A DNA stretch of 64,000 bases from Phyllobates terribilis (taxonomy: Eukaryota), in contig NW_027362769.1 of NCBI RefSeq assembly GCF_046119375.1, forward strand, positions 362,824,001-362,888,000, given 5' to 3'. Positions 3,662-57,841 of this stretch are shown one piece after another (position 1 is the stretch's first letter; each line of letters opens with the position of its first letter). Under the pieces are notes generated by a model. The model was not told the origin of the DNA. It did not search any database and saw only the letters and a list, made by a program, of their open reading frames with translations. The position numbers and the translations under genes were made by a program.

Positions 3662-6132
3662 TCATTGGCTTAGCTCTATTCCTCCCATTCTGTATATGCT
3701 TTTTTCATTTTTATTGCCCAGATGTAGTACTTTGCATTTTTCCCTGTTAAAAACCATTCTGTTGGTTGCTGCCCACTGCTCCAGTTTATTTAGGTCTTTT
3801 TGAATCCTCTCTCTCTCTTCTCTAGTATTAGCTATCCCTCCTAGCTTTGTGTCATCAGCAAATTTAATCAGTTTACCCTCAATTCCTTCATCTAAATCAT
3901 TGATGATGTTGAACAATACAGGTCCCAGGACAGAGCCCTGTGGTATCCCACTTGAGACATTCATCCAGCTGGATGTGAAGCCATTTACAACCACCCTTTG
4001 AGTCCGATCACTAAGCCAGTTATGAATCCACCTAACAGTTGCCTGGTCCATTGCATACTTGGTCATTTTTTCAATAAGGATGGTGTGAGATACTTTGTCA
4101 AATGCTTTGCTGAAGTCAAGATATACTATATCTACAGCATTTCCCTGATCCACCCAGTCAGTGATTCTGTCATAGAAGGAAATTAAGTTAGTCTGACATG
4201 ACTTGTTAGTTACAAACCCATGCTGACTCTGGTTAATCACTTCATTCTTATCCAGGTACTTACATACATGATGTTTAATAATTTGTTCAAAGATCTTTCC
4301 TGGTATAGAAGTCAGACTCACCGGCCTATAGTTCCCTGGGTCCACCTTCTTCCCCTTTTTGAAGATAGGAACAACATTTGCTCTTCTCCAGTCTTCTGGG
4401 ACTTCTCCTGTTCTCCAAGAATTTTCAAAGATTATGGAGAGTGGTTCTAAAATTTCTTCTACGATCTCCTTCAGTACTCTGGGGTGTAATTCATCTGGAC
4501 CTGGAGACTTGAACTCATTTATGTTAGCTAAATATTCCCTCACAATCTTTCTGTTTACAGATAACTTGGATTCTTCTATTCCTTTAAAAGGACAGTGAAA
4601 ATCAGTTGATGTTACATTTTCTTTCTGAGAGAAAACAGATGCAAAATAGGAATTAAAAAGTTCGGCCTTCTCAACATCCTCTCTTACCATTTCTCCATTT
4701 TCATCCTGTAAAAATCCTATAGCATCTTTGACTTTTCTTTTACTTTTGACATACCCCCAAAATCCTTTTTTATTGCTTTTGACATCTCTTGCAAGCCTTA
4801 ATTCATTGTCAGCTTTAGCTAACCTGATACGTGCCCTACAGGATCTGCAGACTGCATTATAATCTTCTTTAGATATGCCTCCCTCTTTCCATTTAATAAA
4901 CATTTCTTTCTTTCTTTTTAGCATGTGTTTAAGTTCTGTGTTCATCCATCCTGGTTTCCTTAAATGCTTCCCATTCTTCCTACTTTTCGGGATTGTTAAC
5001 GATTGTGCTTTGAGAATCTCATTTTTAAAAATTTCCCATCCTTCCTGGACATTTTTGTCCTTAAGGACATCCAGCTATTGGATCCCTCCTATTCTGTTTC
5101 TGAGTCTCTTAAAATCTGCCTTTCTAAAATCTAACCTTGAAGTTTGAGTCTTCACATGTCTTCCTCCTCTAGTTATCCAAAATTCTATAATAGCATGATC
5201 GCTGCCTCCTAGGGTCCCAGCCACCTTTACCTCCTCAACCATTTCCTCCCTGTTTATAAGGATTAGATCCAAAGTAGCAGATCCCCTTGTTTTCTCCCCT
5301 ACCTTTTGGAAGATAAAGTTGTCAGCAAGAGAGGATAAGAATTTGCTTGACCTGTTAGTTTTACTTGAGAGAGATTCCCAACAAATGTCTGGATAGTTGA
5401 AATCTCCCATGACCACTACGTCATATTTTTTGGAGAACTTGGTCATTTGATACATAAAGAGTTCATCCATATCTTCAGCTTGCCCAGGTGGCCTGTAGTA
5501 AATGCCTACAATGGTGTCCTTTCCGTTGTTCTCTCCTTGTATTCTTACCCAAACAGTTTCCACAGAACTCCCAGTCTCTGAAGCTTCAATCTCTGTGCAG
5601 ATATACGCTTTTCTAACATACAATGCGACACCTCCTCCTCGTTTATCAATTCTGTTTCTTGCAAATAAGTTGTATCCTTTTAGCCTTTTATTCCAATCAT
5701 GTGTATCGTCCCACCAAGTTTCAGTGATTCCAATGACATCATATTTCTTTTCCTGCATTAGTAGTTCCAATTCTCCTTGTTTGTTGCCCATGCTTTGTGC
5801 ATTTGTATAAAAACATTTTAGTTTGTGATTGGTTTCTCTTCCTCCCATATTTTTATTTAGATTTTTTTGTCTTTGTTCTTTCTTTCCACTTCCAGTAGCA
5901 GAGATCTCAATAGTATTTGTCAGCTGTATGGCTTTTTCTGGCCTTTTGCTTCCCTTCCCACATTGTTCTAGTTTAAAGCTCTCCTGATGAGTGTAGCAAG
6001 GCGACTTCCAAATACATGTTTCCAGTCTTCGTAAGGTGCACCCCATCTCTAGCAAGTAGTCCATCGTATAGGTAATTCATCCCGTGATCCAGAAATCCAA
6101 ATCCTTGTTGACGGCACCATCGACGTAGCCAG
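3662..6132 (-). mobile_element. CR1 LINE, 3' part: end of ORF1 plus ORF2 (APE endonuclease and RT), 3'-truncated
   Basis: APE motifs (CFYTNAQS, IGITETWW, GGGVALYV, VVMGDFN) and RT motifs (KSPGPD, NYRPVSL, YLDFSKAFD, PQGSVLGP, FADD). ORFs 5075-6064 and 3662-4945 are in one frame, separated by a TAG at 5075-5077. The ORF1 stop is at 5968-5970. Confidence 0.93.
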
Positions 6133-9097: not shown

Positions 9098-9212
9098 CCC
9101 AGCCAATAGTTTTGGCCTAATACCACAGTTTGGCCACTCAGCTCTGCTCGGTTACCATCCATTGTTTTTTTGTGCAAACAACTCCAGAGTTGTGAATTAG
9201 TTAACCACCAAA

Positions 9213-12200
9213 ATGAGTGGAAAAAGGCCTGCTGCTGGTGGAAAGGGGAATAGGCGTGTTGGGAAGGGGAAAAAAGGTTGTGTCCGTGGGGTAGGTGTTA
9301 AAGCAACAGTAACATCTGCAGAAGAAAGACCATCTTCCAGCCAAACTAAAATGTCTACTTCTTTTAGCGGACAATGTGATAAGATCCCTTTCTTACGGCC
9401 ACGCCAATCGCTACAAATTCCAGATGAGGCACAAAAACAGCAGGTGCTTCAACGGATATCAAGTGCTCCTTTAAGTGGGCTCTCCTCCACATCAACTTCA
9501 ACATCACAAATACTCCAGTCCTCAAAGGTGTCACCCAAATCGCACTTGCTTCCTCACAGCTCCCAAATCTCCAGCTGCCCGTCTGAGTATGAGGTAGAAC
9601 AGATGGTTGAGTCTGCAGAGCTGTTTACTCATACTATAGCCTGGGAATCAGAGGTCGACTCCAGCGCTTCTGTGAATCCAGACGAGGAAATGATCTGCAC
9701 TGATGCCCAGAATCTTTATGAGTCGGATCCAGGACCAGACGCAGAAGGTTCTGACCATAATGTAGACCCTCATTCCCAAACTGTAACTCCTGTTGGTGGA
9801 GACAATGAGGAAGACGATGATAAGACTCAAATACCTGATTGGAGCGACAACTTTAGTTTTTTGTCAGGGCAGGAACAGGTTGGCTCTGAGGACGACGGGT
9901 GTGATAACGCACAGGGTGATGATGATGAGGTCGGAGATCCCACTTACTGTCAACCCACAGTCAGCCAAGAGATGAGGTCAGCAGAGGAGGTGGAGGAAGA
10001 TGCTAGTGACGACGAGGTCAGGTTGCGCCTTCCTGGACAGAGACGTAGTACTGGAAGCACGTCAACAACTGCATCCTCAAACACAACTCTGCCTCTCACC
10101 ACAAGTCGTGGTGGCTCTTCAGGTCGCATGGGTGCTAAGCCTTGCATAGCCTGGGCATTTTTTCAGATCGATAAAGATGACCCAACTCGTGTTATCTGTA
10201 ACATTTGTCAGCAAAAGCTAAGTAGAGGCCAAAAAATACATAGTTTGAGTACTTCATGCATGAACCGGCACATGGACATGAAGCATAAGTTGCAGTGGGA
10301 AGCTCAGTGTGCTACAATGCGGTCTAGCCGGCCGGGCCAACCACCGTCTGCCATATCTTGTGCATCCGCGGCCTCTTCATCCTCTGTGACTGGGGGGACA
10401 GCAGTCACACCTGTTTTGGGGCGCAGACCTGCCACCTCTTTACCCGCAACAGCCAGCGTGATTGGCAGGTCATCATTTTCTTTGGAGGTGGTAACACCAG
10501 CTGGTGTTGAGCGCTGTCCGACATCGATAGCACCACCTTTGGATCAAGGCAACCTAACATGTCCGCCTGCATCTTCCTCACAGACCGGCAGTTTGCTGGG
10601 GACACCCTTATCAACCCCGTCTAAGCACAATAGCCAGCCCTCGGTCCCTCAGATGTGGACAAGTAAAAGACCATTTCCTCCTAGCCATGAGAAAGCTAAG
10701 AGGTTGAATTTCACCATCTGCAAGCTCTTGGCTACAGAAATGCTGCCTTTCCGCCTGGTGGACACAGAGGATTTTCGAGACCTTATGTCCGTCGCAGTGC
10801 CCCAGTACCAGATGCCCAGTCGGCACTACTTCTCAAAGAAAGGTGTGCCTGCGCTCCACCAGCATGTCGCACACAACATCACCGCTTCTTTGAGAAACTC
10901 TGTGTGTGACAGGGTGCATTTCACCACAGACACTTGGACGAGTAGGCATGGACAGGGGCGTTACATGTCGCTGACTGGGCACTGGGTAACTATGGTGACA
11001 GCAGGACAAGGGGCTGCTGTCCAAGTCTTGCCGTCCCCACGAGTTGTGCGTCAATCCTCTTTATGTCATTTTTCCTCCACTGCTTCTGCCTCCTCAACCT
11101 CCTCTCGGTCTTCCACCTGCACCCAAAGGCTGTCTGGTCATGCCACAAGCTTTCTAACTGCGCAGAAGGGATCCTGCACACCTCCTTACTATGCTGGCAG
11201 TAGGGCTCAACGTCATCAGGCGGTTTTTACATTGAAATGTCTGGGAAATGTGAGTCACACAGCTGAGGAGTTGTGGTCAGCTCTGGAGAACCAATTTCAT
11301 GAATGGTTGTCTCCACTGGACCTGAAACCAGGGAAGGCCGTGTGCGACAATGCTGCAAACCTGGGTGCGGCCCTTCGCCGGGGCAATGTCACACACGTGC
11401 CTTGTATGGCTCACGTGTTGAACCTGGTTGTCCAGCAATTTTTAGCCCACTATCCCAGACTAGATGGCCTTCTGCAGAGGGCACGGTCGCTGTGTGCTCA
11501 CTTCCGCCGTTCGCATCCCGCAGCTCAGCGACTTACATCTCTACAGAAGTCGTTGGGCCTGCCACTTCACCGGCTAAAATGCGATGTGCCTACCCAGTGG
11601 AATTCAACTCTGCACATGTTGCAGCGACTGTGGCAGCACCGACAAGCCCTGGTGCAATACGTTCTGACGTATAGCCTGGGCCAACGAGATTCAGAGGTGG
11701 GGCAAATCACGCTGGAGGAGTGGTCTCAGATCAGGGACCTATGCACCCTTCTGCACAGTTTTGAAATGGCGACGAAGATGTTTAGTGCTGACGATGCCAT
11801 TATCAGCATGACTATTCCGGTGATTTACATGCTGGAGCACATGTTAAACAGAATTCGGAGTCAGGTGGTGGCACAAGAGGAGGTGGAGGAAGTAGAGGAG
11901 GAGGAGTTGTATGCGGAAGGGCTAACATCTGCAAGGTCCAGACGGTCGGCAGCACCAAGGCGGCAGGCATGTGAGGGTGGGGGAGATGATTTTACCAGGG
12001 CGCATGGTAGCAGCCAAACTAGTGAGGAAGGTGCAGGAGCCCAGGAAGAAGTGGAGGACGAACTGATGGAAGACTCATCAGATGAGGGAGACCTTGATCA
12101 CATTTCTGTTGTGCGAGGTTGGGGGGAGAGGACAGAGGAAGGAAGCATGATTGCTACCTCGCCACCAACACAACAGGGACTTGGTGCTCCTGGATGCGCA

Positions 12201-12914
12201 ACACACATGAGTGCCTTCTTGCTGCACTACCTGCAACATGACGGTCGAATTGTGAGAATTAGAAATAATCCTGACTACTGGGTTGCCACACTGTTAGATC
12301 CCCGGTACAAAAGTAAATTTGCAGAAATTATTCCTGCCATAGAAAGGGATGCACGCATGCAGGAGTATCAGCAGAGACTGTTGCAGAATCTTACATGTGC
12401 TTTTCCACAAAATACCAGTGGTGCACGTAGTGAATCTCACAGTTCCAACTTGCCAACCGTGGGACCGTCAAGTGTTCAGCACTCAAACCGTAACAGAACC
12501 ACAGTATCTGCTGGTAACATCAATTTTGCGGAATCATTTCACCACTTTTTTAGCCCATCCTTTGCAAGGCCACAGGAGACAAGAAGTCTGACACATAGTC
12601 AACGCCTAGAGACGATGGTACAGGAGTATCTCCAAGTAAACATTGAAGCCACGACTGTGTCACTGGACCCTTGCTCTTTTTGGGCTTCCAATCTGGATAA
12701 ATGGCCGGAGCTAGCCACTTACGCCTTGGAGATCTTGTCATGCCCCGCAGCCAGCGTTCTGTCTGAACGTGTGTTCAGCGCTGCTGGTGGTGTGCTGACA
12801 GATAAGCGCACGCGGCTCTCCACTGATAATGTAGACAGACTCACGTTCATAAAGATGAACAAATCATGGATCCGAAACGACTTTTCTACCCCTGTGTCAT
12901 CCTGGGGAGAGTAA
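9213..12914 (+). CDS. hAT transposase (BED zinc finger, DDE core, C-terminal dimerisation domain), 1233 aa
   Basis: BED finger (AWAFF...CNIC...HMDMKH), FTTDTW, CDNAANL, CMAHVLNL, CDVPTQWNS and CPAASVLSERVFS. The ORF is uninterrupted. Confidence 0.93.
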   Translation: MSGKRPAAGGKGNRRVGKGKKGCVRGVGVKATVTSAEERPSSSQTKMSTSFSGQCDKIPFLRPRQSLQIPDEAQKQQVLQRISSAPLSGLSSTSTSTSQILQSSKVSPKSHLLPHSSQISSCPSEYEVEQMVESAELFTHTIAWESEVDSSASVNPDEEMICTDAQNLYESDPGPDAEGSDHNVDPHSQTVTPVGGDNEEDDDKTQIPDWSDNFSFLSGQEQVGSEDDGCDNAQGDDDEVGDPTYCQPTVSQEMRSAEEVEEDASDDEVRLRLPGQRRSTGSTSTTASSNTTLPLTTSRGGSSGRMGAKPCIAWAFFQIDKDDPTRVICNICQQKLSRGQKIHSLSTSCMNRHMDMKHKLQWEAQCATMRSSRPGQPPSAISCASAASSSSVTGGTAVTPVLGRRPATSLPATASVIGRSSFSLEVVTPAGVERCPTSIAPPLDQGNLTCPPASSSQTGSLLGTPLSTPSKHNSQPSVPQMWTSKRPFPPSHEKAKRLNFTICKLLATEMLPFRLVDTEDFRDLMSVAVPQYQMPSRHYFSKKGVPALHQHVAHNITASLRNSVCDRVHFTTDTWTSRHGQGRYMSLTGHWVTMVTAGQGAAVQVLPSPRVVRQSSLCHFSSTASASSTSSRSSTCTQRLSGHATSFLTAQKGSCTPPYYAGSRAQRHQAVFTLKCLGNVSHTAEELWSALENQFHEWLSPLDLKPGKAVCDNAANLGAALRRGNVTHVPCMAHVLNLVVQQFLAHYPRLDGLLQRARSLCAHFRRSHPAAQRLTSLQKSLGLPLHRLKCDVPTQWNSTLHMLQRLWQHRQALVQYVLTYSLGQRDSEVGQITLEEWSQIRDLCTLLHSFEMATKMFSADDAIISMTIPVIYMLEHMLNRIRSQVVAQEEVEEVEEEELYAEGLTSARSRRSAAPRRQACEGGGDDFTRAHGSSQTSEEGAGAQEEVEDELMEDSSDEGDLDHISVVRGWGERTEEGSMIATSPPTQQGLGAPGCATHMSAFLLHYLQHDGRIVRIRNNPDYWVATLLDPRYKSKFAEIIPAIERDARMQEYQQRLLQNLTCAFPQNTSGARSESHSSNLPTVGPSSVQHSNRNRTTVSAGNINFAESFHHFFSPSFARPQETRSLTHSQRLETMVQEYLQVNIEATTVSLDPCSFWASNLDKWPELATYALEILSCPAASVLSERVFSAAGGVLTDKRTRLSTDNVDRLTFIKMNKSWIRNDFSTPVSSWGE

Positions 12915-33933: not shown

Positions 33934-34398
<465 letters not shown>

Positions 34399-35703: not shown

Positions 35704-36351
35704 TTATTCCTTAGCTGCGGGCTTCTTGGCTTTAGCTGCCTTCTTAGCAGGACTCTTCGCAGCTTTGGGTTTGGCCGCCTTCTTAGCCGGACTCTTCGTC
35801 ACCTTCTTGGGCTTCGGAGCGGCCTTTGGCTTCTTGGTCGCCTTCTTGGCAGCTGCTGCGGGCTACTTGGCCTTCTTCTGGCTCTTCTTTGCTGCGGTCG
35901 GAGCCTTCTTGGGCTTCTTCGGAGACTTGGCGGCTTTCTTGGCTGCAGCAGGCTTCTTGGGCTTGGCCGCAGCTGCTGACTTCTTCCTGGCCGCTTTGTC
36001 CTTAGTCTCCTGCTGCTTCTTGTTCAGCTTGAAGGACCCGGAGGCGCCGCTGCCCTTCACCTGGAGGAGGGCGCCCTTGGTGACCAGAGCCTTGACGGCC
36101 AGCTTCAGGCGGCTGTTGTTCTTCTCTACATCGTATCCTCCGACAGACAGAGCCTTCTTCAGGGCGGCCAGAGACACCCCACTGCGCTCCTTAGAGGCGG
36201 ACACGGCTTTCACGATCAGATCGGAGACGCTGGGACCGGAGGGCTTCTTGCTTTTTTTGACGCCCCCGGCGGCGGATTTCTTCGGCTGCTTCTTGGATTT
36301 GGCGGCCGGTTCCGCGGGAGGGGGAGCGGCGGCTGGTGCGGTCTCTGCCAT
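35704..36351 (-). pseudogene. H1: Histone H1 (somatic type) with premature stop at codon 163
   Basis: [18 protein letters not shown]..., globular domain ([15 protein letters not shown]...[10 protein letters not shown]). TAG at 35863-35865 is in frame with the normal TAA at 35704-35706. Confidence 0.9.
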
Positions 36352-43803: not shown

Positions 43804-44955
43804 CAGGGCCGGCTCCAAGTTTTTGTGGGCCCCGGGCGAAAGAGTCTCAGTGGGCCCCTTTAACAGATATTATGATTCCAGATGCACCCCTTAAGTGTGT
43901 AAGCCCCCCAACATGCAGCATCAGTCAAATTCTACATGCAAGAGGAATGAAATGCAACAACACCCCCTTACATATGCAAGGCGCCAACATGCAACATAAA
44001 GGGTATGTGCACACGGTCAGTAAACGCTGCTGATTGGATGCAGCACACTTGCGCTGCGTGCAAACCACAGCATTCGATAATACAAGCAAAGTGGATGGGA
44101 TTTGAAGAAATCCCATGCCCACTATGCATCTCCAGGCACCTGCGGATCACCCGCGGACACGGACTTGCGGCGCGTCTTTCCGTCAATTTCTCTTGTGGAG
44201 TCGCTAGTCTCCGCAAGAGAAATTAGATCAGTGCAATGTATAGGATGGGGTGAATCCGCATGGTTCAATGAACACATGCGGATTCACCTGCGTGCAGCGC
44301 TTTGGACGCAGCATAAAGTATACTGCGTTCAAAGCGTTGACAGTACAGATGGTGTGCCCATAACTCATTCCCTGTAAAAGCCCCCACAACATGCAACACA
44401 TGCATGCATCACCCCCTTCCCTGTGCTAGACCCTCAACATCACCCACTTACATATGCAAGTCCCCAACATGCAACATCACTTCCCTATGCAATTCCCCAC
44501 AATATGCAGTGCCATGCATGCATCACGCCCTTCCCTCTGCTAGACCCTCAACATCACCCACTTATATATGCAAGTCCCCAACATGCAACATCACTTCCCT
44601 ATGCAATTCCCCACAATATGCAATGCCATGCATGTGTGGCACCCCTGAGGGTTCGACCACCACATGAATGCTGCACTTCTCTAATGGAGTGTAGTGTTCC
44701 TCCTCTGAGGTAAGCCCGGTGTGATGGTCGCGACCCAGCCTTGCATCCAACACCACACTTCTCCACCAGAGGGAGCTAGTATGCACTAGGTGTTGCTCCC
44801 CTGGTTACAGGGAGACTGGGGAACACAAAGTGGTAGGAACCAGTTAGTGGGTGTGGGTGGAGGACTTACAAGTTAGTTACACCTTAAATTTCATATTTAA
44901 TAGAAAGCCATCTTTGATCTTGGTCTGTTGTTCTTCTCTGGTCCTTTGTCTAGCC

Positions 44956-46463
44956 CAGGGGTCCTCAAACTTTTTAAACAGGGGGCCAGTTCACGGTCCC
45001 TCAGACCATTGGAGGGCCGGAATATAGTTTTTAAAAAAAACTATGAACAAATTACTATGCACACTGCACATATCTTATTTGTAGTAAAAAAAACAATACA
45101 GGAACAAATACAATATTTAAAATGAAGAACAAGTAAAGTTAAATCAACCGGTATTTCAATAGGTAGGTAACTGTACCCAATAGGCAGCATAGGTCCTCAA
45201 TAGGCAGGTAAATGTCCCCAATAGGCAGCATCGGTCCTCAATAGGCAGGTAAATATCCCCAATAGGCAGGTAAATGTCCCCCATAGGCAGGTAAATGTCC
45301 CCAATAGGCAGCATAGGTCCCCAATAGGCAGGTAAATGTACCCAATAGGCAGCATAGGTCCCCAATAGGCAGGTAAATGTCCCCAATAGGCAGCATAGGT
45401 CCTCAATGGGCAGGTAAATGTTCCAAATAGGCAGGCTGTTTCCCCCTTATAATGCCATATGCAGGCTGTTCCACCCCTTATTATGCCCCATGCAGGCTGT
45501 TCCCCCCCATGTAATGCCCCATGCAGCATGTCACCGCCCCATATAATGCCCCATGCAGCATGTCACCCCCCCATATTATGCCCCATGCAGCATGTCACCC
45601 CCCCATATTATGCCCCATGCAGCATGTCACCCCCCCTATATTATGCCCCATGCAGGATGCCACCCCCCATATAATGCCCCATGCAGGATGTCACCCCCCA
45701 TATAATGCCCCATGCAGGATAACACTCCCCTGTCTTTATTATACCCCATGCAGCATGTCACCCCCCACATATAATGCCCCATGCAGCATGTCACCCCCCA
45801 TATAATGCCCCATGCAGCATGTCACCCCCCCAATATAATGCCACATGCAGCTTGTCACCCCCCCCATATAATGCCACATGCAGCATGTCACACCCCCCAT
45901 ATCATGCCCCATGCAGGATGTTTACCCCCCCATATTATACCCCTTGCAGCATGTCACCCCCCCATATAATGCCCCATGCAGGATGTCACCCCCCATATCA
46001 TGCCCCATGCAGGATGTCACCTCCCCATATTATACCCCTTGCAGGATGTCACTCCTCCATATAATGACCTATGCCTCCATACATTAAAAAAAAAAAAAAA
46101 ATCCAATACTCACCTCACTTCTCACCTGCTGCCGCTGCCGCTGCCCTACTCTTGTCTGGACTACAGCGTCGCGGCGGCGTCGTCCCGATCTGCGCTGCCT
46201 GTGACGGCACTCGGGAGGGCGCGGTGTAAAGACGTCACCGCATCCTCTGACCTGAGACGTCACAGAAAGCGCAGAGCAGGAAGACAGCGGATCTGCAGAG
46301 GCACAGGGAGAGGTAAGTATCCGCCTGCCGGGGCCCTGAGCAAGCGGGAGAGAAGGGCGGATGCTGACACCGCTCCCCTCTCCTCCACCCATAGCCCGGC
46401 GGGCCGGATAAAAGTCCTCCGCGGGCCGCATGTGGCCCGCGGGCCGTAGTTTGAGGACCCCTG
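44956..46463. mobile_element. Charlie-type hAT MITE with internal minisatellites, inside the 5' LTR
   Basis: TIR CAGGGGTCCTCAAACT and 8-bp TSD GTCTAGCC (44948-44955 and 46464-46471). Absent from the 3' LTR. About 20-bp repeats at 45150-45440 and about 33-bp repeats at 45440-46080. Confidence 0.9.
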
Positions 46464-46986
46464 GTCTAGCCTTTGCTAGTCTGTCGGCTGTCTCTGTGCA
46501 GTCAAAATACTGTGTGTAATGTGACCTCCCTCCGGGAGCGCAGATCCTATGTGGGCCTGCGCCGGTAAGGGACACAGCCCTCGTACCCTGGCCTTGGGAC
46601 GAGAGGTAGGTTGTAGACAAGGAATGTCTCAACCCGGCCAAGGACCAGGATCAAGAAGGCCCTGGGAGCTTTAGAGTGTGGCTCCCCAGCAAATGGGTCC
46701 CGGGGAGGATGCAGACGGAGCGGAGCACGCCACCTGTCCTCGCCTACCTGATCTATTCAGAGGGATTCCGGCTGCAAGAGGGGTACCGGCCCTCGACACC
46801 CGACCTTGTACTCTATGTCCTGGACGGGAAAGCCCGGTTAGGCCCTGAGGATCCCACCGGGCATCGGATGGAGAGGAATTGCCACCCGTGCCCTAGTCCT
46901 GAGAGGAGCTCAGAGGGAGACCCGGCCTATCTACACACGCACAGACGGGAAAGGGTGAAGTTTATAGTGCAGGAACACTCTGGTGT

Positions 46987-49900
46987 TGTTATGTTCTGCT
47001 ACCAGAGCTAAGGAAAGAGAGGAGATCTGTCCCTACGATAGAACTCAGCTGAATCCCTACGATGTAACAGGGAACCTGATCCTGCGATCAGACCTGCTAA
47101 AGTCCTAAGCTAGTCTGTACGGAGACCTATAGATGTGGGGAAGGAATCCCTACAAGTACTAAGGACTGGGAGGAAAATGGGACACCTCCTAACAGAAATA
47201 GTAGCAGACAGACGAACAAACAAAATATATAGAACATAGAGGTCCGCAGACCAAGCAAACTAACAGAGTTAGATACAGAGCACAGGCTAGCTAGAAAGTA
47301 GTTATACAATGAAGTCCAGCAAAGCCAGAAGGGCGGAGCAGGATTAAATAGGCCAACAAGGTCATGTGACCAGCAAAGGAAAAAACCTAAGAGCAAGGTT
47401 CTAACAGTACCCCCCCTTCTAAGAGGGTCCTCCGGATCCCCTAGGACCAGGCTTATCAGGAAATCTCCTGTGAAACGCTCTGATAAGTCTGGACGCGGAA
47501 ACATCATCTGACCTCACCCAAGAGTTATCCTCGGGTCCGAAACCTTTCCAGGCCACAAGATACTGCAAACTACCTCTATACCGTCTAGAGTTAAGGATGC
47601 GAGAAATTTCATATTCCCCGTCCTCCACCACCGGAGGAACAGAGGCAGAGGCGTCACCATCCGACACAACAGCTTTTTTTAACAGAGAGACATGAAATAC
47701 CGGATTAATTCTCCAGGAGGTAGGAACCTCCAACCTAACAGCAGATTGGTTGACAACCTGAAGCACCTTAAAGGGCCCTACAAACTTGGGACCCAATTTC
47801 TTAGAAGGAATCCTCAACCGCAGATTCCTAGAGGACAACCAAACCATGTCACCAACAGCGAACAAAACCTCCTGTCGTTTCCTATCAAAGTAGTCTTTAG
47901 ATTTTCTGTTGGCCTCCTGAAGATTACCACGCACATCCGTCCAAACTCTCTACAAATCACCGGAAAAATTCTCCTCCTCAGGCACGGCAGATCCCAACTT
48001 GGAGAACGACCCAAACGACGGATGTCTCCCAGAACAACAAAAAAAAGGCGAACAACCAGCAGAAGAAGATGTATGATTGTTCAGAGCAAATTCAGCAAGT
48101 GGCAGAAACTCAGACCACCCCTCTTGATTGTCTGCCACAAAACAACGCAAGAACTGCTCAACATCCTGGTTTTTCCTTTCTGTCTGGCCATTAGATTCAG
48201 GATGATATCCGGACGAGAACGACAAATGAACTCCCAACCTGTCACAAAAGGCACGCCAAAAACGAGCCACGAACTGAGGACCCCTATCAGAAACAATGTC
48301 AGTAGGAACGCCATGAAGTCTGACAATTTCCTTGACAAAGGCCTTAGCGAGAGTTTTAGCGCAGGGCAGTTTGACGAAGGGAACCAAGTGACACATCTTG
48401 CTAAAACGGTCCACGACCACCCAGATGACAGTAAAACCCTCAGAGGGGGGAAGGTCAGTTATAAAGTCCATAGCCAAATGTGTCCAAAGAGCACTGGGAA
48501 CCTCCAAAGGACAAAGCAACCCCGCAGCAGGAGTATGTGAGGACTTAGATCTAGCACATATAGTACATTGACGCACCCACTTAATGACCTCCTTCTGCCA
48601 TCCAGGCCACCAAAAACTGCGACCCACCAGTCTCTTGGTCTCAGAGATTCCGGGATGACCTGCCAACCGAGACTCGTGACACTCAACAAACAAATCTCTC
48701 CTAAAGGTCCCAGGCACAAACAACCTCCCATGAGGAGTGTTAGATGGGGCATTCTCCTGTGCTTTAAGAATCTCATCTTCCAAAACGGAGTCCAAAGCAG
48801 CTATCACAACACCTTCTTGTAAAATGTTCTCCTCTTTCTCAGCACCGACTATGGGAGAAAAACTGCGAGACAAGGCATCCGCCTTAACATTCTTAGTACC
48901 AGGGATGTAAGTAACGGAGAAATTAAACCGCGAGAAAAACAGTGCCCACCTAGCCTGACGAGCATTCAGGCGCTTGGCAGCATCAAGATATATCAGATTT
49001 TTATGATCCGTAAGAACCTGAACGGGAAATTCCGCACCTTCCAAGAAGTGGCGCCAGTGTTCAAATGCGAGTTTAATAGCCAATAATTCCCGATTACCAA
49101 TATCGTAATTCAGTTCAGTCTCCGAAAATTTTTTTGAAAAAAAGGCACAGGGATGTAATCCATCCCCGTTATCCTGAGACAATACTGCGCCAACCCCCAC
49201 AGAGGAAGCATCAACCTCAACCAAAAACGGCTTAGTCACATCAGGCTGCATAAGGATGGGAGCAGAGGTGAACCTCTCCTTGAGATACACAAAAGCTTCA
49301 ATGGCCTCAGAAGACCACTGAACCGCATCAGCACCTTTCCTGGTGAGATCGGTCAGAGGTTTGACAATACTAGAAAATTTTTTTATGAATTTTCTGTAAT
49401 AATTGGCGAAACCTAAAAACCTCTGTATCGATTTCAAACCAATAGGCCTAGGCCATTCCTGCACAGCTTGAACTTTAACCGGGTCCATCTCAAAACCTTC
49501 ACTGGAGATAATGTAACCCAAAAAACTAATTCTCTGTACAGCGAACTCACATTTCTCCAGCTTAGCAAAAACCGAATTGTCCATTAATAACTGTAATACC
49601 TCACGTACGCTCCGCCAATGAGACTCCAGATCCGGCGAATAAATCAAAATGTCATCCAAATACACAACCACATTTTTGCCGATCAAAGATCTAAGGATGT
49701 CATTAATAAGATTCTGAAACAATGCAGGAGCATTAGTAAGACCAAAAGGCATAACCAGATTCTCAAAATGACCCACAGGAGTGTTAAAAGCAGTCTTCCA
49801 TTCGTCACCCTCCTTCATGCGCAACAGATTGTATGCCTCCTTAAGGTCAATTTTAGAGAACCACTTGGCCCCCATTAACTGGTTAAACAGATCAGGAATC

Positions 49901-51954
49901 AATGGCAGTGGGTAAGGATTGCGTACAGTAATTTTGTTAATCTCACGAAAATCCAGACAAGGACGTAAACCGCCGTCCTTTTTTTTTGCAAAAAAAAATC
50001 CAACTGCCACAGGAGACTTAGAAGGCCTAATGTGACCGGCGGCCAAACTTGTCTGTATGTATTCCTCCAAAGCCTTCCTCTCAGGAATAGTAAGGTTAAA
50101 TAAACGACTTTTAGGAAGAGTCGCTCCAGGGACAAATTCAATAGAACAATCATAGTCTCTATGGGGAGGCAAAACCTGCGATTCCTTCTCAGAAAAAACT
50201 CTCCAAAAATCCTGAATAGGAACAGGCAATTCTCCCCTATCCAAAGCTGCAATACGCCCATTACAACACTTGTCATAACATTTATGGCTCCAGGATTTAA
50301 TTTCACTGGTAGACCAATCCAGTACAGGATTGTGAAATTTTAACCAGGGCAATCCCAATATTACTGGAGAAGGCAAGTTATTCAAAACTACCAAATCCAA
50401 TTTCTCATGGTGAACACCATTAATAGTGAGAGGAAATTCACAGACCTTGAGAGTAATATTCTTCAAAGGGGAACCATCCACAGAAACCACAGCAATGGGG
50501 GATGATAAAGGTTCGGGTTTTAAATTGAGTCTTTCCAAGAATCCCCCATCAATTACATTCAGAGTAGACCCACAATCAACAAACACCCGAAATTCCATTA
50601 ATTTTTCCTGAGCAATCGTGGAAGCAGCTAAAAATACACCCTTGGAATTTAAACAGGCAATACGGGCATGACTGACCATTTTTTTTTCTTTCTTCATACG
50701 AAGCTCACAGCCTTTAATCAAATGACCAGATTTTCCGCAATAGAAACACAAGCCTTCAAAAAATCTACGGTCTTTTTCTTGAGAGCGAGGTGCCACCGAT
50801 CCAATCTCCATCGGTTCACCACTGTTAGTACACACATTCTCATAACCAGAAACTGACATAGCAGAGGATTTGCTCTCATTAACCCTTGCACGCAGTCTCC
50901 TATCCACCCGTATAGCTAATTGCATAGCCTGTTGCAAATCTTCAGGTGTAGGATAAGCAATTAGCAGGTCTTTAACCCTTTCATTGAGCCCAGCAAGAAA
51001 TAGACTTTTCAGAGCAGAATCGTTCCACCCTGTTTGAGTAGACCAACGACGGAAATGAGTACAATATTTTTCCACATTACCTGATCCCTGTTTCAAACGT
51101 CTCAACTCAGATTCAGCTGATGAGACACGGTCAGGATCATCATATAATAGTCCCAAAGCAGAAAAAAAACTATCCACTGATCTGAAGCATGTATCACTAG
51201 GTTGCAAAGAAAAGGCCCACTCCTGAGGCTCTTTGCGCAAAAGTGACATTATGAACCCTATGCGCTGGGATTCATCCCCAGAGGACTTGGGTCTCAAACG
51301 AAAATACAATAAGCAAGCATTTTTAAATGAAAAAAATTCTCGGTGTTCACCAAAAAATAAATCCGGCAAACATACCTTAGGCTCCAAGAAATGTGCTCCA
51401 GGACAGTTACTCACGTGCTGACGGAGCTCGGCCACCTCCAGAGAGAGTCCCTGCAGGCGATGAGCCAAATCCTGAACCGACACCATGATGGAACAGAAAA
51501 ATCTTTCCTTAGAGAATTTGCAGGCTGGACTTACTGTTATGTTCTGCTACCAGAGCTAAGGAAAGAGAGGAGATCTGTCCCTACGATAGAACTCAGCTGA
51601 ATCTCTACGATGTAACAGGGAACCTGATCCTGCGATCAGACCTGCTAAAGTCCTAAGCTAGTCTGTACGGAGACCTATAGATGTGGGGAAGGAATCCCTA
51701 CAAGTACTAAGGACTGGGAGGAAAATGGGACACCTCCTAACAGAAATAGTAGCAGACAGACGAACAAACAAAATATATAGAACATAGAGGTCCGTAGACC
51801 AAGCAAACTAACAGAGTTAGATACAGAGCACAGGCTAGCTAGAAAGTAGTTATACAATGAAGTCCAGCAAAGCCAGAAGGGCGGAGCAGGATTAAATAGG
51901 CCAACAAGGTCATGTGACCAGCAAAGGAAAAAACCTAAGAGCAAGGTGCTAACA
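46987..51954 (-). mobile_element. Ty3/Gypsy chromovirus (sushi-like), full length
   Basis: 420-bp LTRs (46987-47406 and 51535-51954; I see 3 differences), 5-bp TSD GGTGT and a polypurine tract next to the 3' LTR. Confidence 0.96.
47419..51486 (-). CDS. Gypsy Gag-Pol single frame (Gag, CCHC, protease, RT, RNase H, integrase, chromodomain) with one premature TAG at 47950-47952
   Basis: CFYCGKSGHLIKGC, VFVDCGS, YLDD, DASSVG, HESRLAGH..CTIC, SDRGPQF and YLVAWKGFGPEDNSW. The two listed ORFs are in the same frame. Confidence 0.93.
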
Positions 51955-52485
51955 GGTGTAGGGTCGCTACCGAACACTGGACTTTCTCGGAGGTAGTCGG
52001 ACCCCCGTCCCTGGTGGCCGCAGGACTCCGCGGGGAGCAGGGAGTCGCCTTCCCGCTGACATCTCTAAGTGAGTAAAGCCTTGGAAGTTCACCCCTATGG
52101 CCTCTGGAGTGTTCATTACGCGCCATACCATGCGACGCGGTGCCCGTACTCCCCGCACTACTACCCCCTCTCTTTCCTGTTTGCCTGCCCTGAGGCCTTG
52201 CTCCGCCTGTGGGGAGCAGCGAGAACTTTAGCCGCCATGACACCGGGCCTCAGCGGACTGCAGCGGCGCTGGTCACTCTTCACCAGGCACCACAGGTGGC
52301 GTAGTCGTTAAAATAAGCCACTCAACCAGGACAAGCCCACAGCATCTTTTTCTAATGTGACGGCCCTGAGCACGGGTCGGGCCTAGGCCACGGCTGCATC
52401 CCATCTCTCCATCACAGGGCCCGACACCGAGTCCCCCATCACCCAGGGTAAAACATGGGCTTCTCTGAGTAGAGGCGTCACAACC

Positions 52486-52503
52486 TGGTGTAGTCGGCAG
52501 GAT
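52486..52503 (+). promoter_or_regulatory. Primer-binding site complementary to the tRNA-Ser 3' end
   Basis: TGGTGTAGTCGGCAGGAT, 3 nt after the 5' LTR. It matches 17 of 18 nt of TGGCGTAGTCGGCAGGAT, the complement of vertebrate tRNA-Ser as recalled. Confidence 0.85.
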
Positions 52504-52862
52504 CGCGTGCCCGCAGCAAAGGAAGAAGTGCCCATTGCTATCGGGTACTGTGTGCCTTACACCTTGAACTGTTGTTTACACTTAAAATGGCGCCCGCCCA
52601 AGAAGAACAGACGCCATAATGCTGTGAAAAGACTGTCTTTGAACACCTCCCATCGTGGGCTGGGCTCCCGCTTGGCGCCAAAAAGGTGGACTGCCCCTTC
52701 CATCAGAGACTGTCCGCGGGGTAATGCCCGTCAAACTGGATGGGCTGAACAAAGGCGGGCCTGTCAGCATTCCGCCCAGGAACCGCCCCGAGAGAGGAGG
52801 AAGAAGCAAAGCAACAAGGTTCGTCCATTGCAGTTGGAGCTTGGCAGTCAACGGAGGCAGAC

Positions 52863-53465
52863 ATGGATGCCTCTGGGGAGCAAGACCACGCATCTACTGA
52901 ACCCGGTTCAGGCCCTTCACCCGGCAGAGAGCAAGGCGGCAGCGTATTGACCCCGGGAGATATTACATTTCTCCAGCAGGAAGCTCCGGAACTCCTAAGA
53001 AGGCAGATAGAGGCCCAGGAGGCGGCGACGGCTGCGTGGCGGGAAGAGATGCTGCTGCGTATCCGGGACCGCTGTCAAGGAGTAGAGGTCCCAGGACAAG
53101 TCGACTCGGTGACAGAGGTCGAGAGCGGCCCAGCGGCGGGTGAGTGTGCAACCCCTGCCCTGGCTGCAGAGCCTACCGTGACTATCTTGGACCTCATGTC
53201 GGAGTACCTGATTCCCCACGAGGTCACCTGGGAGCAAGCGTTGGCTCCAGAGCTGCAATCGGCAGCCATGGGTGAGGACCTGCGATGCCGCCCAAACCCT
53301 GATTCGGAGGTGCCTGAAGCTGCAGAGGAAACTACCGGCTCCAACCCGGACTGGTCCGCGTCTACAGAGGACTCGCAGCAACCCGTTCTAACCTCGCTAC
53401 CTGCACGGCAGGAACCTGGCCCGAGGCTGAGGATTGGGCCTGGGAAAACTAGGGGGGCGACCTAA
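52863..53465 (+). CDS. Internal ORF1 of the LTR element (200 aa, acidic, predicted coiled coil, unknown function)
   Basis: The ORF opens about 360 nt after the PBS, and its TAA overlaps the next ATG. No recognised domain. Confidence 0.5.
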   Translation: MDASGEQDHASTEPGSGPSPGREQGGSVLTPGDITFLQQEAPELLRRQIEAQEAATAAWREEMLLRIRDRCQGVEVPGQVDSVTEVESGPAAGECATPALAAEPTVTILDLMSEYLIPHEVTWEQALAPELQSAAMGEDLRCRPNPDSEVPEAAEETTGSNPDWSASTEDSQQPVLTSLPARQEPGPRLRIGPGKTRGAT

Positions 53466-53956
53466 TGGGCTTCCCCCGGGAGACCAGGGCTGAAGCGCGG
53501 AGGAGGATCCAGTGGTGCAGCGACCAGATATTCCAGCTCGCATGGGAGCAGCGTCGGCGGGAGCAGCGCTGCGAGCACCTCGAGGCCAGGACCAAAGCTG
53601 CAAAAACTCGGGCGCGTCAGGAGGAGGCCACCCGTTCCAGTCCCCGGTACGAAGGCCAAGTCGTCCGTTTTCATCGTGAGGTGGGGTGGGGGTTCATCCG
53701 GTGTCCCCAGTTCCAGGACGATGTGTTCGTCAGCCGGCGGGAAGTCGAGCAGCGCCTCAAGAAGGGACACCCCGGTCGGAACCTCTTCCTGGGCGACACA
53801 GTGACTTTCACTCGCCACCAGGGGGAGCGTGGGTGGTACGCCCTGGACGTACACAAAGTGTCCGGGAGCGACACCACCCCGCGTTCAGCCTCAGGGGACC
53901 GGCTAGCCACCGTCGGGAGGAATGAGCCCTTTCCAAGACGGCAGCCCGAAGTTTAA
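53465..53956 (+). CDS. Cold-shock-domain protein (163 aa; CSD about aa 61-132) encoded by the LTR element
   Basis: YEGQVVRF..VGWGFI (RNP1-like), DVFVS (RNP2-like) and LFLGDTVTF...GWYALDV match the CSD/OB-fold pattern and spacing. Confidence 0.8.
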   Translation: MGFPRETRAEARRRIQWCSDQIFQLAWEQRRREQRCEHLEARTKAAKTRARQEEATRSSPRYEGQVVRFHREVGWGFIRCPQFQDDVFVSRREVEQRLKKGHPGRNLFLGDTVTFTRHQGERGWYALDVHKVSGSDTTPRSASGDRLATVGRNEPFPRRQPEV

Positions 53957-54356
53957 AGCAGCCCCCGGCTGTTGTTGCAGTTTTGTTTACAAGTTTAAAA
54001 GTTGACTTTTCCTATTATGCTTAATTTCTAACCCGGTTTCTAGAGACACCTGTCCCTGCGGACTAGCAGACAGACTCTTTCCCCCTGTATATAGTTTGCA
54101 TCTCCTTAGGTGCTCCATATTGGTTTTATGCAAAACCGCGGATATTCTCTACCTCAAAACCTCAGAAGAAAAACCTGTTAGGGTGGCTCTCCGGGAGGTC
54201 CAACTCTGGATCTGCATGCCTTGCAGCCACCCCAGGGCCAACGTGGAGGGTTTAGGACCGGTCCCTCGCACTTCTGAACTGACTCGGTGTCCTTGCACTT
54301 TACCTGTCTGTCTGCAATAATGTCTCTGGAAAAATGCTAGCACTTTTATAATTTTA

Positions 54357-56216
54357 CTAGATGGTGGCCCGATTCTAACGCATCGGGTATTCTAGAATAG
54401 GTATGCGGCCGACCGGGCGCAATCAGCAGAGCGGTTTTAAAATTTGGCGCCAAAATCGCTGATTGGTCGAGGCTAGCAACCGCGACCAATTAGCAAAGCG
54501 GTGTTAAAACTTGGTGCCTATATCGCAGATTGGTCACAGCCGGCGGTCGCGACTAATCAGCAGAGCGGGGTTTAAATTTGGCGCCAATAATGCTGATTGG
54601 TCGCGGCCAGCGAACGTGACCAATCAGCAGAGCGAGGTTTAAATTTGGCGGCAATAATGCTGATTGGTTGCGGCCGGCGGTCGCGACCAATCAGCAGAGC
54701 GTTATTTAAATTTGGCGCCAGTAATGGTGATTGGTTACGGCCTTGACTAATCAGCAGAGCGGTGTTTAAATTTGTCGCCAATAATGCTGGTTATTCGTGA
54801 CCGGTAACCGCGACCAATGAGCAGAGCGGTGTTTAAATATGGTGCCAATATCGCTGATTGGTCGCGGCCGGCCACCACGACCAATTAGCGAAGCGGTGTT
54901 TAAATTTGGCGCCAATATCGCTGATTGGTCACAACAGGTGGTTGCGACTAATCAGCAGAGCGAGGTTTAAATTTGGCCCCAATACTGCTGATTGGTCGCG
55001 GCTGGCGAACAATCAGCAGAGCGGAGTTTACATTTGGCGCCAAAATCGCTGATTGGTCGCGCCCGGCAGTCGCGACCAATCAGCAGAGCAGGGTTTAAAT
55101 TTTGCGCCAATACTGCTGATTGTTTGCGGCCGGCGACCGCGACCAATCAGCAGAGCGTTGTTTAAATTTGGCACCAAAATCACTGATTGGTCGTGGCCAG
55201 CGGTGGCGACCAATCGGCAGAGCGGGGTTTAACTTTGGCGCCAATACTGCTCATTGGTCGCGGCCGGTGACCGCGACCAATCAGCAGAGCGGTGTTTCAA
55301 ATTGGCACCAATCTCGCTGATTGGTCGCGTCTGCCGTCCGCGACCAATCAGCAGAGCGTTGTTTAAATTTGGCGCCAATCTCGCTGATTGGTCGCGTCTG
55401 GCGTCAGCGACCAATCAGCAGAGCGTTGTTTAAATTTGGCGCCAATCTCGCTGATTGGTCGCGGACTGCCAACCACCGCGACGAATCAGCAGAGCGGCGT
55501 TTAAATTTGCCGGACATCTCGCTCATTGGTCGCGGTGGCCGGCCGCGACCAATCAGCAGAGCAACGTTTAAATTTGCCACCCATCTCGCTGATTGGTCGC
55601 GGTGGCTGGCCGCGATTAATCAGCAGAGCGGCGTTTAAATTTGCCGTCCATCTCGCTCATTGGTCGCGGTGGCCGGCAGCAACCAATCAGCAGAGCGGCG
55701 TTTAAATTTTCCGTCCATCTCGCTGATTGGTCGCGGCCGGCCACCGCGACCAATCAGCGTGGTATTAGTGTGGGCCCGGGAGCGGCGCTGCTTGTGCAGC
55801 TCCTTCTGCTGCGAGAAGCTGGGAGATGAGCGGCTGCTCGCAGCAGAAGCATCCCGACCGGCGGCGCCGCTCCCCGGTCCTCCGTTCACACTTGCTGTCG
55901 GGAGATCAGCAGGCCAAGCCGCTGATTTTCCGACGTTAGTCGCATGGAGGTCAGCGGCGCCGGTCGGGGTAGTTGTGCTGCTAGCGCCGCTCATCTCCCC
56001 GCTGCATCACCGCTGACCTCCGTCCGCCAGATGAGCCGCTAACGGCCGCCATCTTTTTTTAGAAATCCCGCGGCGCTGATTGGCCTCTGCCGGACCAATG
56101 AGCGACGCGGGATTTCCAGGACAGACAGACAGAAAGACAGACAGAAAGACAGACAGAAAGACAGACATAGACAGACAGACAGACAAACAGACGGGATAAG
56201 ACAATTATATAGTAGA
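54357..56216 (-). mobile_element. Non-autonomous Helitron, copy 2 (about 20 CCAAT-hairpin units at 54420-55760)
   Basis: Same TC and CTAG termini, hairpin and A/T target as copy 1, in reverse orientation. Confidence 0.85.
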
Positions 56217-57841
56217 TACTTTTATACTATGCACCTTGTTATGTAACGTTTAAGAAATGTGCCTCCCATAAAGGGATGATAGTTTTGCATGTTATCATAA
56301 AAAGAAAAAATCCTGGGTGTTGCTTCTTTTGCAGCCCGCGGACGTGCTGTGTTTTACCAGGGGGGAATGTGGCGCCCCTGAGGGTTCGACCGCCACAGGA
56401 ATGCTGCACTTCTCTAATGGAGTGTAGTGTTCCTCCTCTGAGGTAAGCCCGGTGTGATGGTCGCGACCCAGCCTTGCATCCAACACCACACTTCTCCACC
56501 AGAGGGAGCTAGTATGCACTAGGTGTTGCTCCCCTGGTTACAGGGAGACTGGGGAACACAAAGTGGTAGGAAGCAGTTAGTGGGTGTGGGTGGAGGACTT
56601 ACAAGTTAGTTACACCTTAAATTTCATATTTAATAGAAAGCCATCTTTGATCTTGGTCTGTTGTTCTTCTCTGGTCCTTTGTCTAGCCTTTGCTAGTCTG
56701 TCAGCTGTCTCTTTGCAGTCAAAATACTGTGTGTAATGTGACCTCCCTCCGGGAGCGCAGATCCTGTGTGGGCCTGCGCCGGTAAGGGACACAGCCCTCG
56801 TACCCTGGCCTTGTAGGTTGTAGACAAGTAATGTCTCAACCCGGCCAAGGACCAGGATCAAGAAGGCCCTGGGAGCTTTAGAGTGTGGCTCCCCAGAAAA
56901 TGGGTCCCGGGGAGGATGCAGACGGAGCGGAGCACGCCACCTGTCCTCGACTACCTAATCTATTCAGAGGGATTCCGGCTGCAAGAGGGGTACCGGCCCC
57001 CGACACCCGACTTTGTACTCTATGTCCTGGACGGGAAAGTCCGGTTAGGCCCTGAGGATCCCTCCGGGCATCAGATGGAGAGGAATTGCCACCCGTGCCC
57101 TAGTCCTGAGAGGAGCTCAGAGGGAGACCCGGCCTATCTACACACGCACAGACGGGAAAGGGTGAAGTTTATAGTGCAGGAACACTCTGGTGTAGGGTCG
57201 CTACCGAACACTGGACTTTCTCGGAGGTAGTCGGACCCCCGTCCCTGGTGGCCGCAGGACTCCGCAGGGAGCAGGGAGACGCCTTCCCGCTGACATCTCT
57301 AAGTGAGTAAAGCCTTGGAAGTTCACCCCTATGGCCTCCGGACTGTTCATTACGCGCCATACCATGCGACGCGGTGCCCGTACTCCCCGCACTACTACCC
57401 CCTCTCTTTCCTGTTTGCCTGCCCTGAGGCCTTGCTCCGCCTGTGGGGAGCAGCGAGAACTTTAGCCGCCATGACACCGGGCCTCAGCGGACTGCAGCGG
57501 CGCTGGTGTCCCTTCACCAGGCACCACAGGTGGCGTAGTCATTAAAATAAGCCACTCAACCCGGACAAGCCCACAGCATCTCTTTCTAATGTGACGGCCC
57601 TGAGCACGAGTCAGGCCCAGGCCACGGCTGCATCCCATCTCTCCATCACAGGGCCCGACACCGAGTCCCCCATCACCCAGGGTAAAACACGGGCTTCTCT
57701 GAGTAGAGGCGTCACACATGCATCACCCCCTTCACTGTGCAAGCCCCACAACATGCAGGCAGTCCTGTGCATAAAGCATCAGCACATTTCATGTACATCA
57801 TCTTCCCCCCCTTCCCTGTGCAAGACCCACAACATACTGCA

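Follow-up and report, generated by a model that had tools for sequence, protein, structure and literature searches.

TRIM and LARD elements, which are non-autonomous long terminal repeat (LTR) retrotransposons, have a non-coding internal region. Coding forms are known from frogs: passages of PMC4585706 describe the Xenopus LTR elements 1A11 and Xretpos (lambda-olt 2-1) as carrying one open reading frame (ORF) without pol homology, call the 1A11 protein Gag-like and take these elements as immobile. Bdelloid LTR elements are presented in parts of PMC5408684 as bearing a cellular-type cargo domain in an ORF3 (GDSL, DEDDy exonuclease, env-like) that comes after gag-pol; the text of that paper has 0 instances of 'cold shock'. 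Here we analyse a stretch of 64,000 nucleotides from the poison frog Phyllobates terribilis (the window; assembly GCF_046119375.1, contig NW_027362769.1, positions 362,824,001 to 362,888,000), in which a pol-less LTR element at 44635-57716 belongs to a group of families encoding a protein with a cold-shock domain (CSD). These CSD elements resemble the Xenopus elements in having one ORF and no pol, and the bdelloid elements in carrying a cellular-type domain. However, their ORF has no detectable Gag homology, the cargo is their sole gene, and they show signs of recent mobilisation. They thus have the one-ORF, pol-less anatomy of the 1A11/Xretpos/Bhikhari type without a Gag-derived ORF, as judged by comparison with PNMA-type Gag and Pfam. 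They also differ from TRIM and LARD elements in that the ORF is under purifying selection. We regard the CSD elements as real and as a new variant among non-autonomous LTR retrotransposons, distinguished by a non-Gag cargo under selection.

The anatomy of the window element agrees with an earlier note on this DNA, made from the letters alone, which had described paired LTRs of about 1.35 kb, a target site duplication (TSD), a tRNA-Ser primer binding site (PBS), a polypurine tract (PPT) and an internal region of about 2 kb without gag or pol once a Helitron-like insert is set aside. All of these signals were recovered (Table 1). The LTR pair is 97.8% identical (1318 of 1348 aligned bases), with the 5' LTR lying in three pieces, and the internal region measures about 2.0 kb without the insert. 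The PBS is complementary to the 3' end plus CCA of tRNA-Ser(AGA/TGA) genes of the same genome, and ARAGORN recognized tRNA-Ser genes with a PBS-matching 3' end in 6 of 20 fetched pattern matches. No Pfam match to gag or to a protease-reverse transcriptase-RNase H-integrase (PR-RT-RH-IN) series was found in the element's internal frames. The gag-pol within 44635-57716 belongs to a nested chromodomain Gypsy element, with the order gag-PR-RT-RH-IN-chromo, and not to its host. This Gypsy element is one of three later insertions in the window copy, together with a miniature inverted-repeat transposable element (MITE), likewise in the 5' LTR, and the Helitron-like insert, which is private to this copy and absent from all 20 sister loci compared.

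The same note had read two open ORFs in the internal region, which proved to be parts of a single damaged gene. The commonest open frame in sister copies has 402 codons from stop to stop and 364 from an ATG that corresponds to 52863, and it runs through the CSD. In the window copy a single-base frameshift near 53405 is followed by a stop codon at 53450-53452, so this copy is dead and cannot produce the full protein; the 163-aa second ORF of the note begins at an internal Met of the broken gene. A search for the ORF in the window's genome (G000, 10.6 Gb) yielded 38,903 candidates, and the best 150, which were scored, all had 83-100% identity. Among 70 loci chosen by PBS pattern alone, the ORF is unbroken in 18. 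The ORF of an older subfamily begins about 75 codons farther upstream, inside the 3' part of the leader.

The proposed CSD is real in terms of both sequence and predicted fold. The frame 53465-53956 scores 33.7 bits against Pfam PF00313 (cut-off 27, E 3.5e-08), and the domain occurs in 20 of 20 aligned family members, being the only Pfam family common to all. Its core residues are near-invariant though overall identity is only 24-83%, and RNP1 (G-W-G-F-I) and the RNP2 Phe are retained. AlphaFold2 predicts a 170-residue core (mean pLDDT 80.9) of a helix followed by a five-strand barrel, which Foldseek matches with probability 1.00 to the CSDs of CspB, CspA and YBX. A conserved motif, W-x-x-x-G-x-x-L-M-G-F, precedes the predicted helix. 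The model of the full protein contains one extra N-terminal helix and is otherwise of low confidence, and the protein outside the core is likely disordered.

The absence of the features that flank the CSD in Lin28 and YBX, already remarked in the note, also held. None of the 20 aligned members has a zf-CCHC match, so the knuckles that follow the CSD in Lin28 are missing, and the C-terminal tail of about 30 aa takes the place of the long basic/acidic C-terminal domain of Y-box proteins. Among solved structures the family profile best matches YBX1/YBX2 (40-42 bits), narrowly ahead of the best bacterial Csp (36.7), with CARHSP1 at 19.9, and Lin28 is not among the 36 matches. The Y-box and element CSDs have the same fold and a long loop of similar length between strands 3 and 4; however, they are only about 30% identical, the canonical Trp and His are replaced, and the element domain stands behind a long helix. 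The top scores of YBX1/2 hint that the CSD might have been captured from a Y-box gene. The best ESM Atlas scores (0.85 and 0.79) lie in generic CSD clusters and serve as leads only, and the matches in a viral fold library were confined to generic CSDs of phages and giant viruses with 20-25% identity. LINE-1 ORF1p is likewise an element-encoded protein with a long helix and an RNA-binding domain, and the CSD protein would resemble it in acting in cis on the RNA that encodes it, although that ORF1p domain is an RNA recognition motif and the element an autonomous non-LTR one; the comparison is with how the protein works, and no homology is claimed.

The ORF was under purifying selection while the element replicated. 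Of the 70 loci mentioned above, which had been picked by PBS pattern and not by ORF, 53 were almost fully covered, above 78% identical and had no more than 3 frameshifts; removal of 2 near-duplicates left 51. Variants found in one copy were taken as mutations after insertion and variants in at least 6 copies as inherited from replicating templates; each variant was counted once and without a tree, which gives a robust sign rather than a precise estimate. Private variants comprise 355 non-synonymous changes, 133 synonymous changes and 16 stops, with a ratio of non-synonymous to synonymous rates (dN/dS) of 1.02. The shared variants comprise 63 non-synonymous and 125 synonymous changes and 0 stops (dN/dS 0.19, Fisher p 1.2e-20). 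Constraint is strongest in the motif, helix and CSD: shared variants in the CSD alone are 7 non-synonymous and 28 synonymous (dN/dS 0.09, p 7.8e-08), and the motif plus helix reach 0.13, compared with 0.27-0.33 in N-terminal parts. With CpG-touching codons excluded, the values are 1.05 for private and 0.17 for shared variants. When shared variants are read in either of the remaining two frames or in the antisense register, the values lie at 1.6-4.1. The note's suggestion of a non-autonomous family with its own CSD protein is upheld by this conservation across copies, with inherited variants far below a ratio of 1.

The window element belongs to clade A, with LTRs of about 1.3-1.4 kb and an internal region of about 2.0 kb. 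Among 22 copies with both ends found, 15 have exact 4-bp TSDs and 2 have 5-bp TSDs; LTR pairs are 92-98% identical, with one partial alignment at 82%. The LTR end joined to the PBS has at least 1,627 exact matches in the genome and its reversed control 0, and 29 of 30 sampled matches are clade A. Here and for the other patterns, exact counts are lower bounds, and samples of 30 were taken in order from the start of contigs C1-C3 and not drawn at random. Sister clade B has LTRs of about 1.2 kb, and 5 of the 10 elements inspected have LTR pairs that are 99.8-100% identical. The ORFs of this clade are longer and share the motif-helix-CSD core of clade A; their helix and CSD show a shared-variant dN/dS of 0.13 (18 of 30 loci used). 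The clade B PPT plus LTR start has at least 6,000 exact matches, with a CSD ORF upstream in 26 of 30 sampled. Recent mobilisation is suggested by the LTR pairs without differences and by copy numbers in the thousands. The internal regions of about 2.0 kb are uniform across subfamilies only 50-60% identical in protein. CSD elements are multi-copy, dispersed, pol-less, bounded by their own TSDs and share priming signals with an autonomous family, as expected of non-autonomous LTR elements. Outside this genome, the named homologues (8 of 150 listed representatives) are 6 single-CSD frog proteins, from the poison frogs Phyllobates, Ranitomeya and Anomaloglossus and known as proteins alone, and 2 dinoflagellate multi-CSD proteins.

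The likely source of Gag and Pol was reached through a gag fragment adjoining a clade-B element, which led to an autonomous Ty3/Gypsy family, here called D. It encodes a PNMA-type Gag of about 330 aa with one knuckle, followed by PR-RT-RH-IN, and has LTRs of about 1.0 kb and 4-bp TSDs. All 11 D loci from the gag search have the same PBS region, similar LTR ends and the PR-RT-RH-IN order, and none of the 11 contains a CSD. CSD elements share with D the tRNA-Ser PBS, TG...CA ends, 4-bp TSDs and parts of the LTR, leader and 3' untranslated region (UTR); the PPT of D, TTTACTAGGGGGGAA, differs by one base from the TTTACCAGGGGGGAA of the CSD clades. In contrast to D, they have neither gag nor pol. 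Mosaic elements exist in which a D-type LTR, leader (81-96%) and 3' UTR surround segments of the CSD ORF, and one pol-less locus (L321) has D-type LTRs on either side of a whole CSD ORF. Mosaic exchange of this kind is produced when reverse transcription switches templates between co-packaged RNAs. The common PBS, PPT and LTR ends together with the mosaics indicate that D is likely the helper, and the D/clade-B mosaics are an indirect hint that D proteins may package and copy the RNA of CSD elements. Some PNMA-type Gags contain a different RNA-binding domain, inside Gag itself, according to part of PMC10516033. Two other candidates were rejected as helper. The Gmr clade is defined in a passage of PMC4131045 by an integrase upstream of the reverse transcriptase, and Gmr1 is ruled out by the PR-RT-RH-IN order of D. 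The nested chromodomain Gypsy has another TSD length and a pol only 38% identical to that of D.

Further young elements combine helper-type and CSD-element sequence. Family C is very young and non-autonomous, with a short ORF in which 99 codons of helper-type gag continue without a frame change into the final part of the CSD ORF (L111:5078-6134, minus strand, and L161-L190). The junction is common to 27 of 30 loci, and all of the best 150 matches, which were scored, are 98-100% identical. A further 221 pattern matches (L291-L320) represent more mosaics, with a helper-type leader and a partly deleted CSD ORF; the whole CSD is kept in 1 of 30 sampled. CSD elements also lie within or beside helper-type pol at L047, L332 and L151, which may only reflect helper abundance.

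Our preferred reading, held with moderate confidence, is that the window element is a dead non-autonomous copy of a retroelement with a selected helix-plus-CSD protein, probably copied by a PNMA-type Ty3/Gypsy helper, and that this protein likely binds mainly its own RNA, which would protect it and favour its entry into helper particles. The proposal builds on the established LTRs, PBS, PPT, TSD and single ORF without gag or pol, an anatomy repeated in sister loci, and on the amino-acid constraint seen among inherited variants despite the gene being unneeded for reverse transcription. Such constraint suggests that the product benefits its own template (cis preference), because mutant copies could profit equally from a product open to all. 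That the gene is constrained in several lineages though Gag and Pol are presumably borrowed likewise argues that the product likely benefits the RNA that made it. Family D would supply Gag and Pol, as the common priming signals, LTR ends and exchanged LTR, leader and 3' UTR segments suggest. The CSD behind its long helix might load on its own mRNA, protect or refold it and favour capture by helper particles. RNA binding and chaperoning are presumed here from CSD biology and by likeness to host YB-1, which supports retroviral RNA levels and particle production according to part of PMC6040738. A bolder version, tentative and somewhat doubtful to us, is that these are still active satellite retroelements of poison-frog genomes, present in thousands of copies, in which gag-pol was replaced by a captured Y-box-type CSD whose cis-acting RNA packaging or shielding lets them out-compete helper RNA. 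If true, this would be a protein-armed parasite of a retrotransposon.

Several observations weigh against this reading. The positions of CspB W8, H29 and F30, which are aromatic positions of the canonical nucleic-acid-binding face, are R/K, S/N/T and R in the element CSD, and with these three lost the ligand and affinity may differ. Conserved Arg/His residues have been added on the binding face, and the domain may recognise structured RNA or the backbone instead of U-rich single strands. Regarding the origin of the domain, Foldseek ranks YBX no higher than bacterial Csp. Within the clade B CSD by itself, private and shared variants do not differ significantly (p 0.26), since most private variants of clade B are synonymous as well. 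The helper connection is looser for the window's own clade: clade A and D have only the PBS, PPT, termini and an approximately 125-bp LTR stretch of about 70% identity in common, and the mosaics with D involve clade B, not clade A. For the autonomous partner with the same LTR and PBS that the earlier note had proposed to identify, D is a candidate, with the PBS in common; an autonomous element with an A-type LTR was absent from 30 sampled loci. Some young families have spread even though their CSD is partly or wholly deleted, which shows that mobilisation can do without the protein. The ORF was absent from runs recorded as RNA, and contigs of three presumed-RNA runs and one of unrecorded type cover it in fragments that cannot show transcription.

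The same data were set against other explanations. The protein might be an anti-silencing or storage factor that shields element RNA in oocytes against piRNA or decay pathways, or one that interferes with a Y-box or silencing partner of the host. The selection and fold data fit this equally, and so does the Y-box-like profile match; Y-box proteins mask oocyte mRNA. High germ-line Gypsy expression in a poison frog, reported in a section of PMC6278860, is also in line with it. However, a host-directed factor would serve all copies, which makes the strong lineage constraint harder to explain, and a factor acting in cis merges with the preferred reading; we consider the idea rather unlikely. Less probable still is that the protein acts on the helper as its adaptor or competitor: the motif or helix would bind helper Gag, and the CSD would tether element RNA or sequester helper RNA in a satellite-like manner. 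Here the constraint on motif and helix, as strong as on the CSD, and the shortness of the helper Gag, with PNMA and one knuckle, could be accounted for, yet no sequence feature links the motif to Gag.

The ORF could also be an accessory gene of an unseen autonomous element, with pol-less copies as deletion derivatives and selection acting in the parent. Captured extra ORFs are known in LTR elements (parts of PMC5408684), and the join in family C could have arisen by a single deletion in a parent with gag-pol and CSD; pol-less elements with D-type LTRs and CSD-ORF parts can parent family C just as well. The autonomous loci without CSD and the uniform internal regions described above speak against such a parent, as does the position of pol matches in fetched CSD loci, outside the LTR pair or in nested elements. 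A search among proteins of 974-2780 aa also found no match, a weak point; 640-970 aa lay outside that search, whereas the representatives mentioned above came from one without a bound on length. We judge a hidden parent very unlikely. The lowest standing goes to the possibility that selection preserves no more than an open frame or an RNA structure, for example to avoid nonsense-mediated decay, or that the ORF is a decayed Gag forming its own particle. Stop codons are indeed absent among shared variants, and a passage of PMC4585706 attributes a Gag-like ORF to other pol-less frog LTR elements. But amino-acid changes are depleted too, not stops alone, and in this frame only. Compared with an alignment of 7 PNMA-type Gags, the ORF has a profile-profile probability of 0.04%, no capsid or knuckle has a Pfam match in the 20 members, and the AlphaFold2 model shows isolated helices and disorder with no capsid fold. 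This explanation is largely refuted and appears hardly credible.

Table 1. Features of the CSD element and its nested insertions, in window coordinates
Feature	Position	Strand	Remarks
TSD CATG, left copy	44631..44634		
5' LTR, piece 1	44635..44955	+	begins TG; 98.8% to 56368-56688
hAT-type MITE, nested	44956..46463		short terminal inverted repeats; 8-bp TSD GTCTAGCC
5' LTR, piece 2	46464..46986	+	95.8% to 56681-57193
Chromodomain Ty3/Gypsy, nested	46987..51954	-	4.97 kb; 421-bp LTRs 99.3% identical; 5-bp TSD GGTGT
5' LTR, piece 3	51955..52482	+	terminates CA; 97.3% to 57189-57716
PBS, tRNA-Ser(AGA/TGA)	52486..52503	+	17/18 match here; 18/18 in most sister copies
Leader	52504..52862	+	mostly 89-97% identical where the ORF of copies is 79-94% identical to the window's
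Cargo gene	52863..53956	+	one ORF, 364 codons in sister copies; frameshifted and stopped here
Predicted 49-residue helix	53486..53632	+	directly before CSD; pLDDT >90 in helix
CSD	53651..53857	+	aa 63-131 of second frame; Pfam PF00313
Helitron-like non-coding insert	54356..56217	+	66-bp-type tandem repeats, (GACA)n run, no TSD
PPT	56359..56367	+	part of the motif common to CSD clades; abuts 3' LTR
3' LTR	56368..57716	+	1349 bp, TG...CA
TSD CATG, right copy	57717..57720		

The CSD families show additional peculiarities. A dense array on G000:C1:438.86-439.79 Mb holds more than 40 LTR-end-plus-PBS matches in about 1 Mb, with repeating spacings. In several elements of L368-L387 the PBS is continued by additional tRNA-Ser sequence, as much as about 50 bases long, as though reverse transcription had read through its normal stop; L374 among them has clade-A-type LTR ends. 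Some CSD elements (L322, L324, L327) have a different, TGGCGTCACGAACAGGAT-like PBS, which we presume to match another tRNA-Ser isoacceptor, and some have simple repeats in place of the 5' part of the ORF. The top PF00313 matches in the genome (L081-L088) are unrelated to the cargo beyond the fold and resemble CSDE1/UNR copies. Six of them (L081-L086, G000:C1:734.436-734.450 Mb) are intron-less, partly duplicated multi-CSD sequence fused to long interspersed nuclear element (LINE) sequence, and likely processed copies. A close relative of the nested chromodomain Gypsy (93-95% aa) sits in the 3' LTR of another clade-A copy (L035:6887-9130), an inverted relative of the Helitron-like insert lies at about 38.5-42.2 kb of the window, and the nested MITE is presumably hAT, judging from its 8-bp TSD and termini.

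Other mobile elements and repeats lie elsewhere in the window. An open frame of 1237 codons at 9201-12911 (plus strand) encodes zf-BED and hAT dimerisation domains and represents an apparently intact hAT transposase, and a LINE endonuclease and reverse transcriptase occupy two frames at 3665-6076 (minus strand). An 8.3-kb duplication, at about 13.7-20.5 kb and 22.0-27.9 kb, contains a Tc1-like fragment, an SGNH/OSK-like ORF and arrays of identical 127-bp repeats. A 39-bp tandem array at 907-2803 ends in the window's only N stretch (2479-2763). On the minus strand, 33934-34344 reads as a histone H3 ORF, in which a single substitution is visible close to the C-terminus, and 35863-36351 as a histone H1 ORF of reduced length.

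No description of a CSD joined to an LTR element was found in the literature searched, a search that had most subscription papers outside its reach, and the family may sit unnamed in repeat libraries or supplements. The main text of the poison-frog genome papers found contains 'cold shock' 0 times and a survey of frog LTR elements 'cold' 0 times. For annotation, the finding is a warning that thousands of CSD Pfam matches in such genomes are transposon cargo, some of them already annotated as 'uncharacterized' or 'CSD domain-containing' genes. The usual picture of non-autonomous LTR elements is that they are non-coding or Gag-only; here the sole gene encodes a non-Gag, cellular-type nucleic-acid-binding domain. 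Selection on this gene implies that the protein of a parasite can improve the success of its own template in the life cycle of another element. CSD elements thus offer a handle on RNA competition for retrotransposon particles and on host-gene capture by retroelements, and they are one contributor to the very large genomes of poison frogs.

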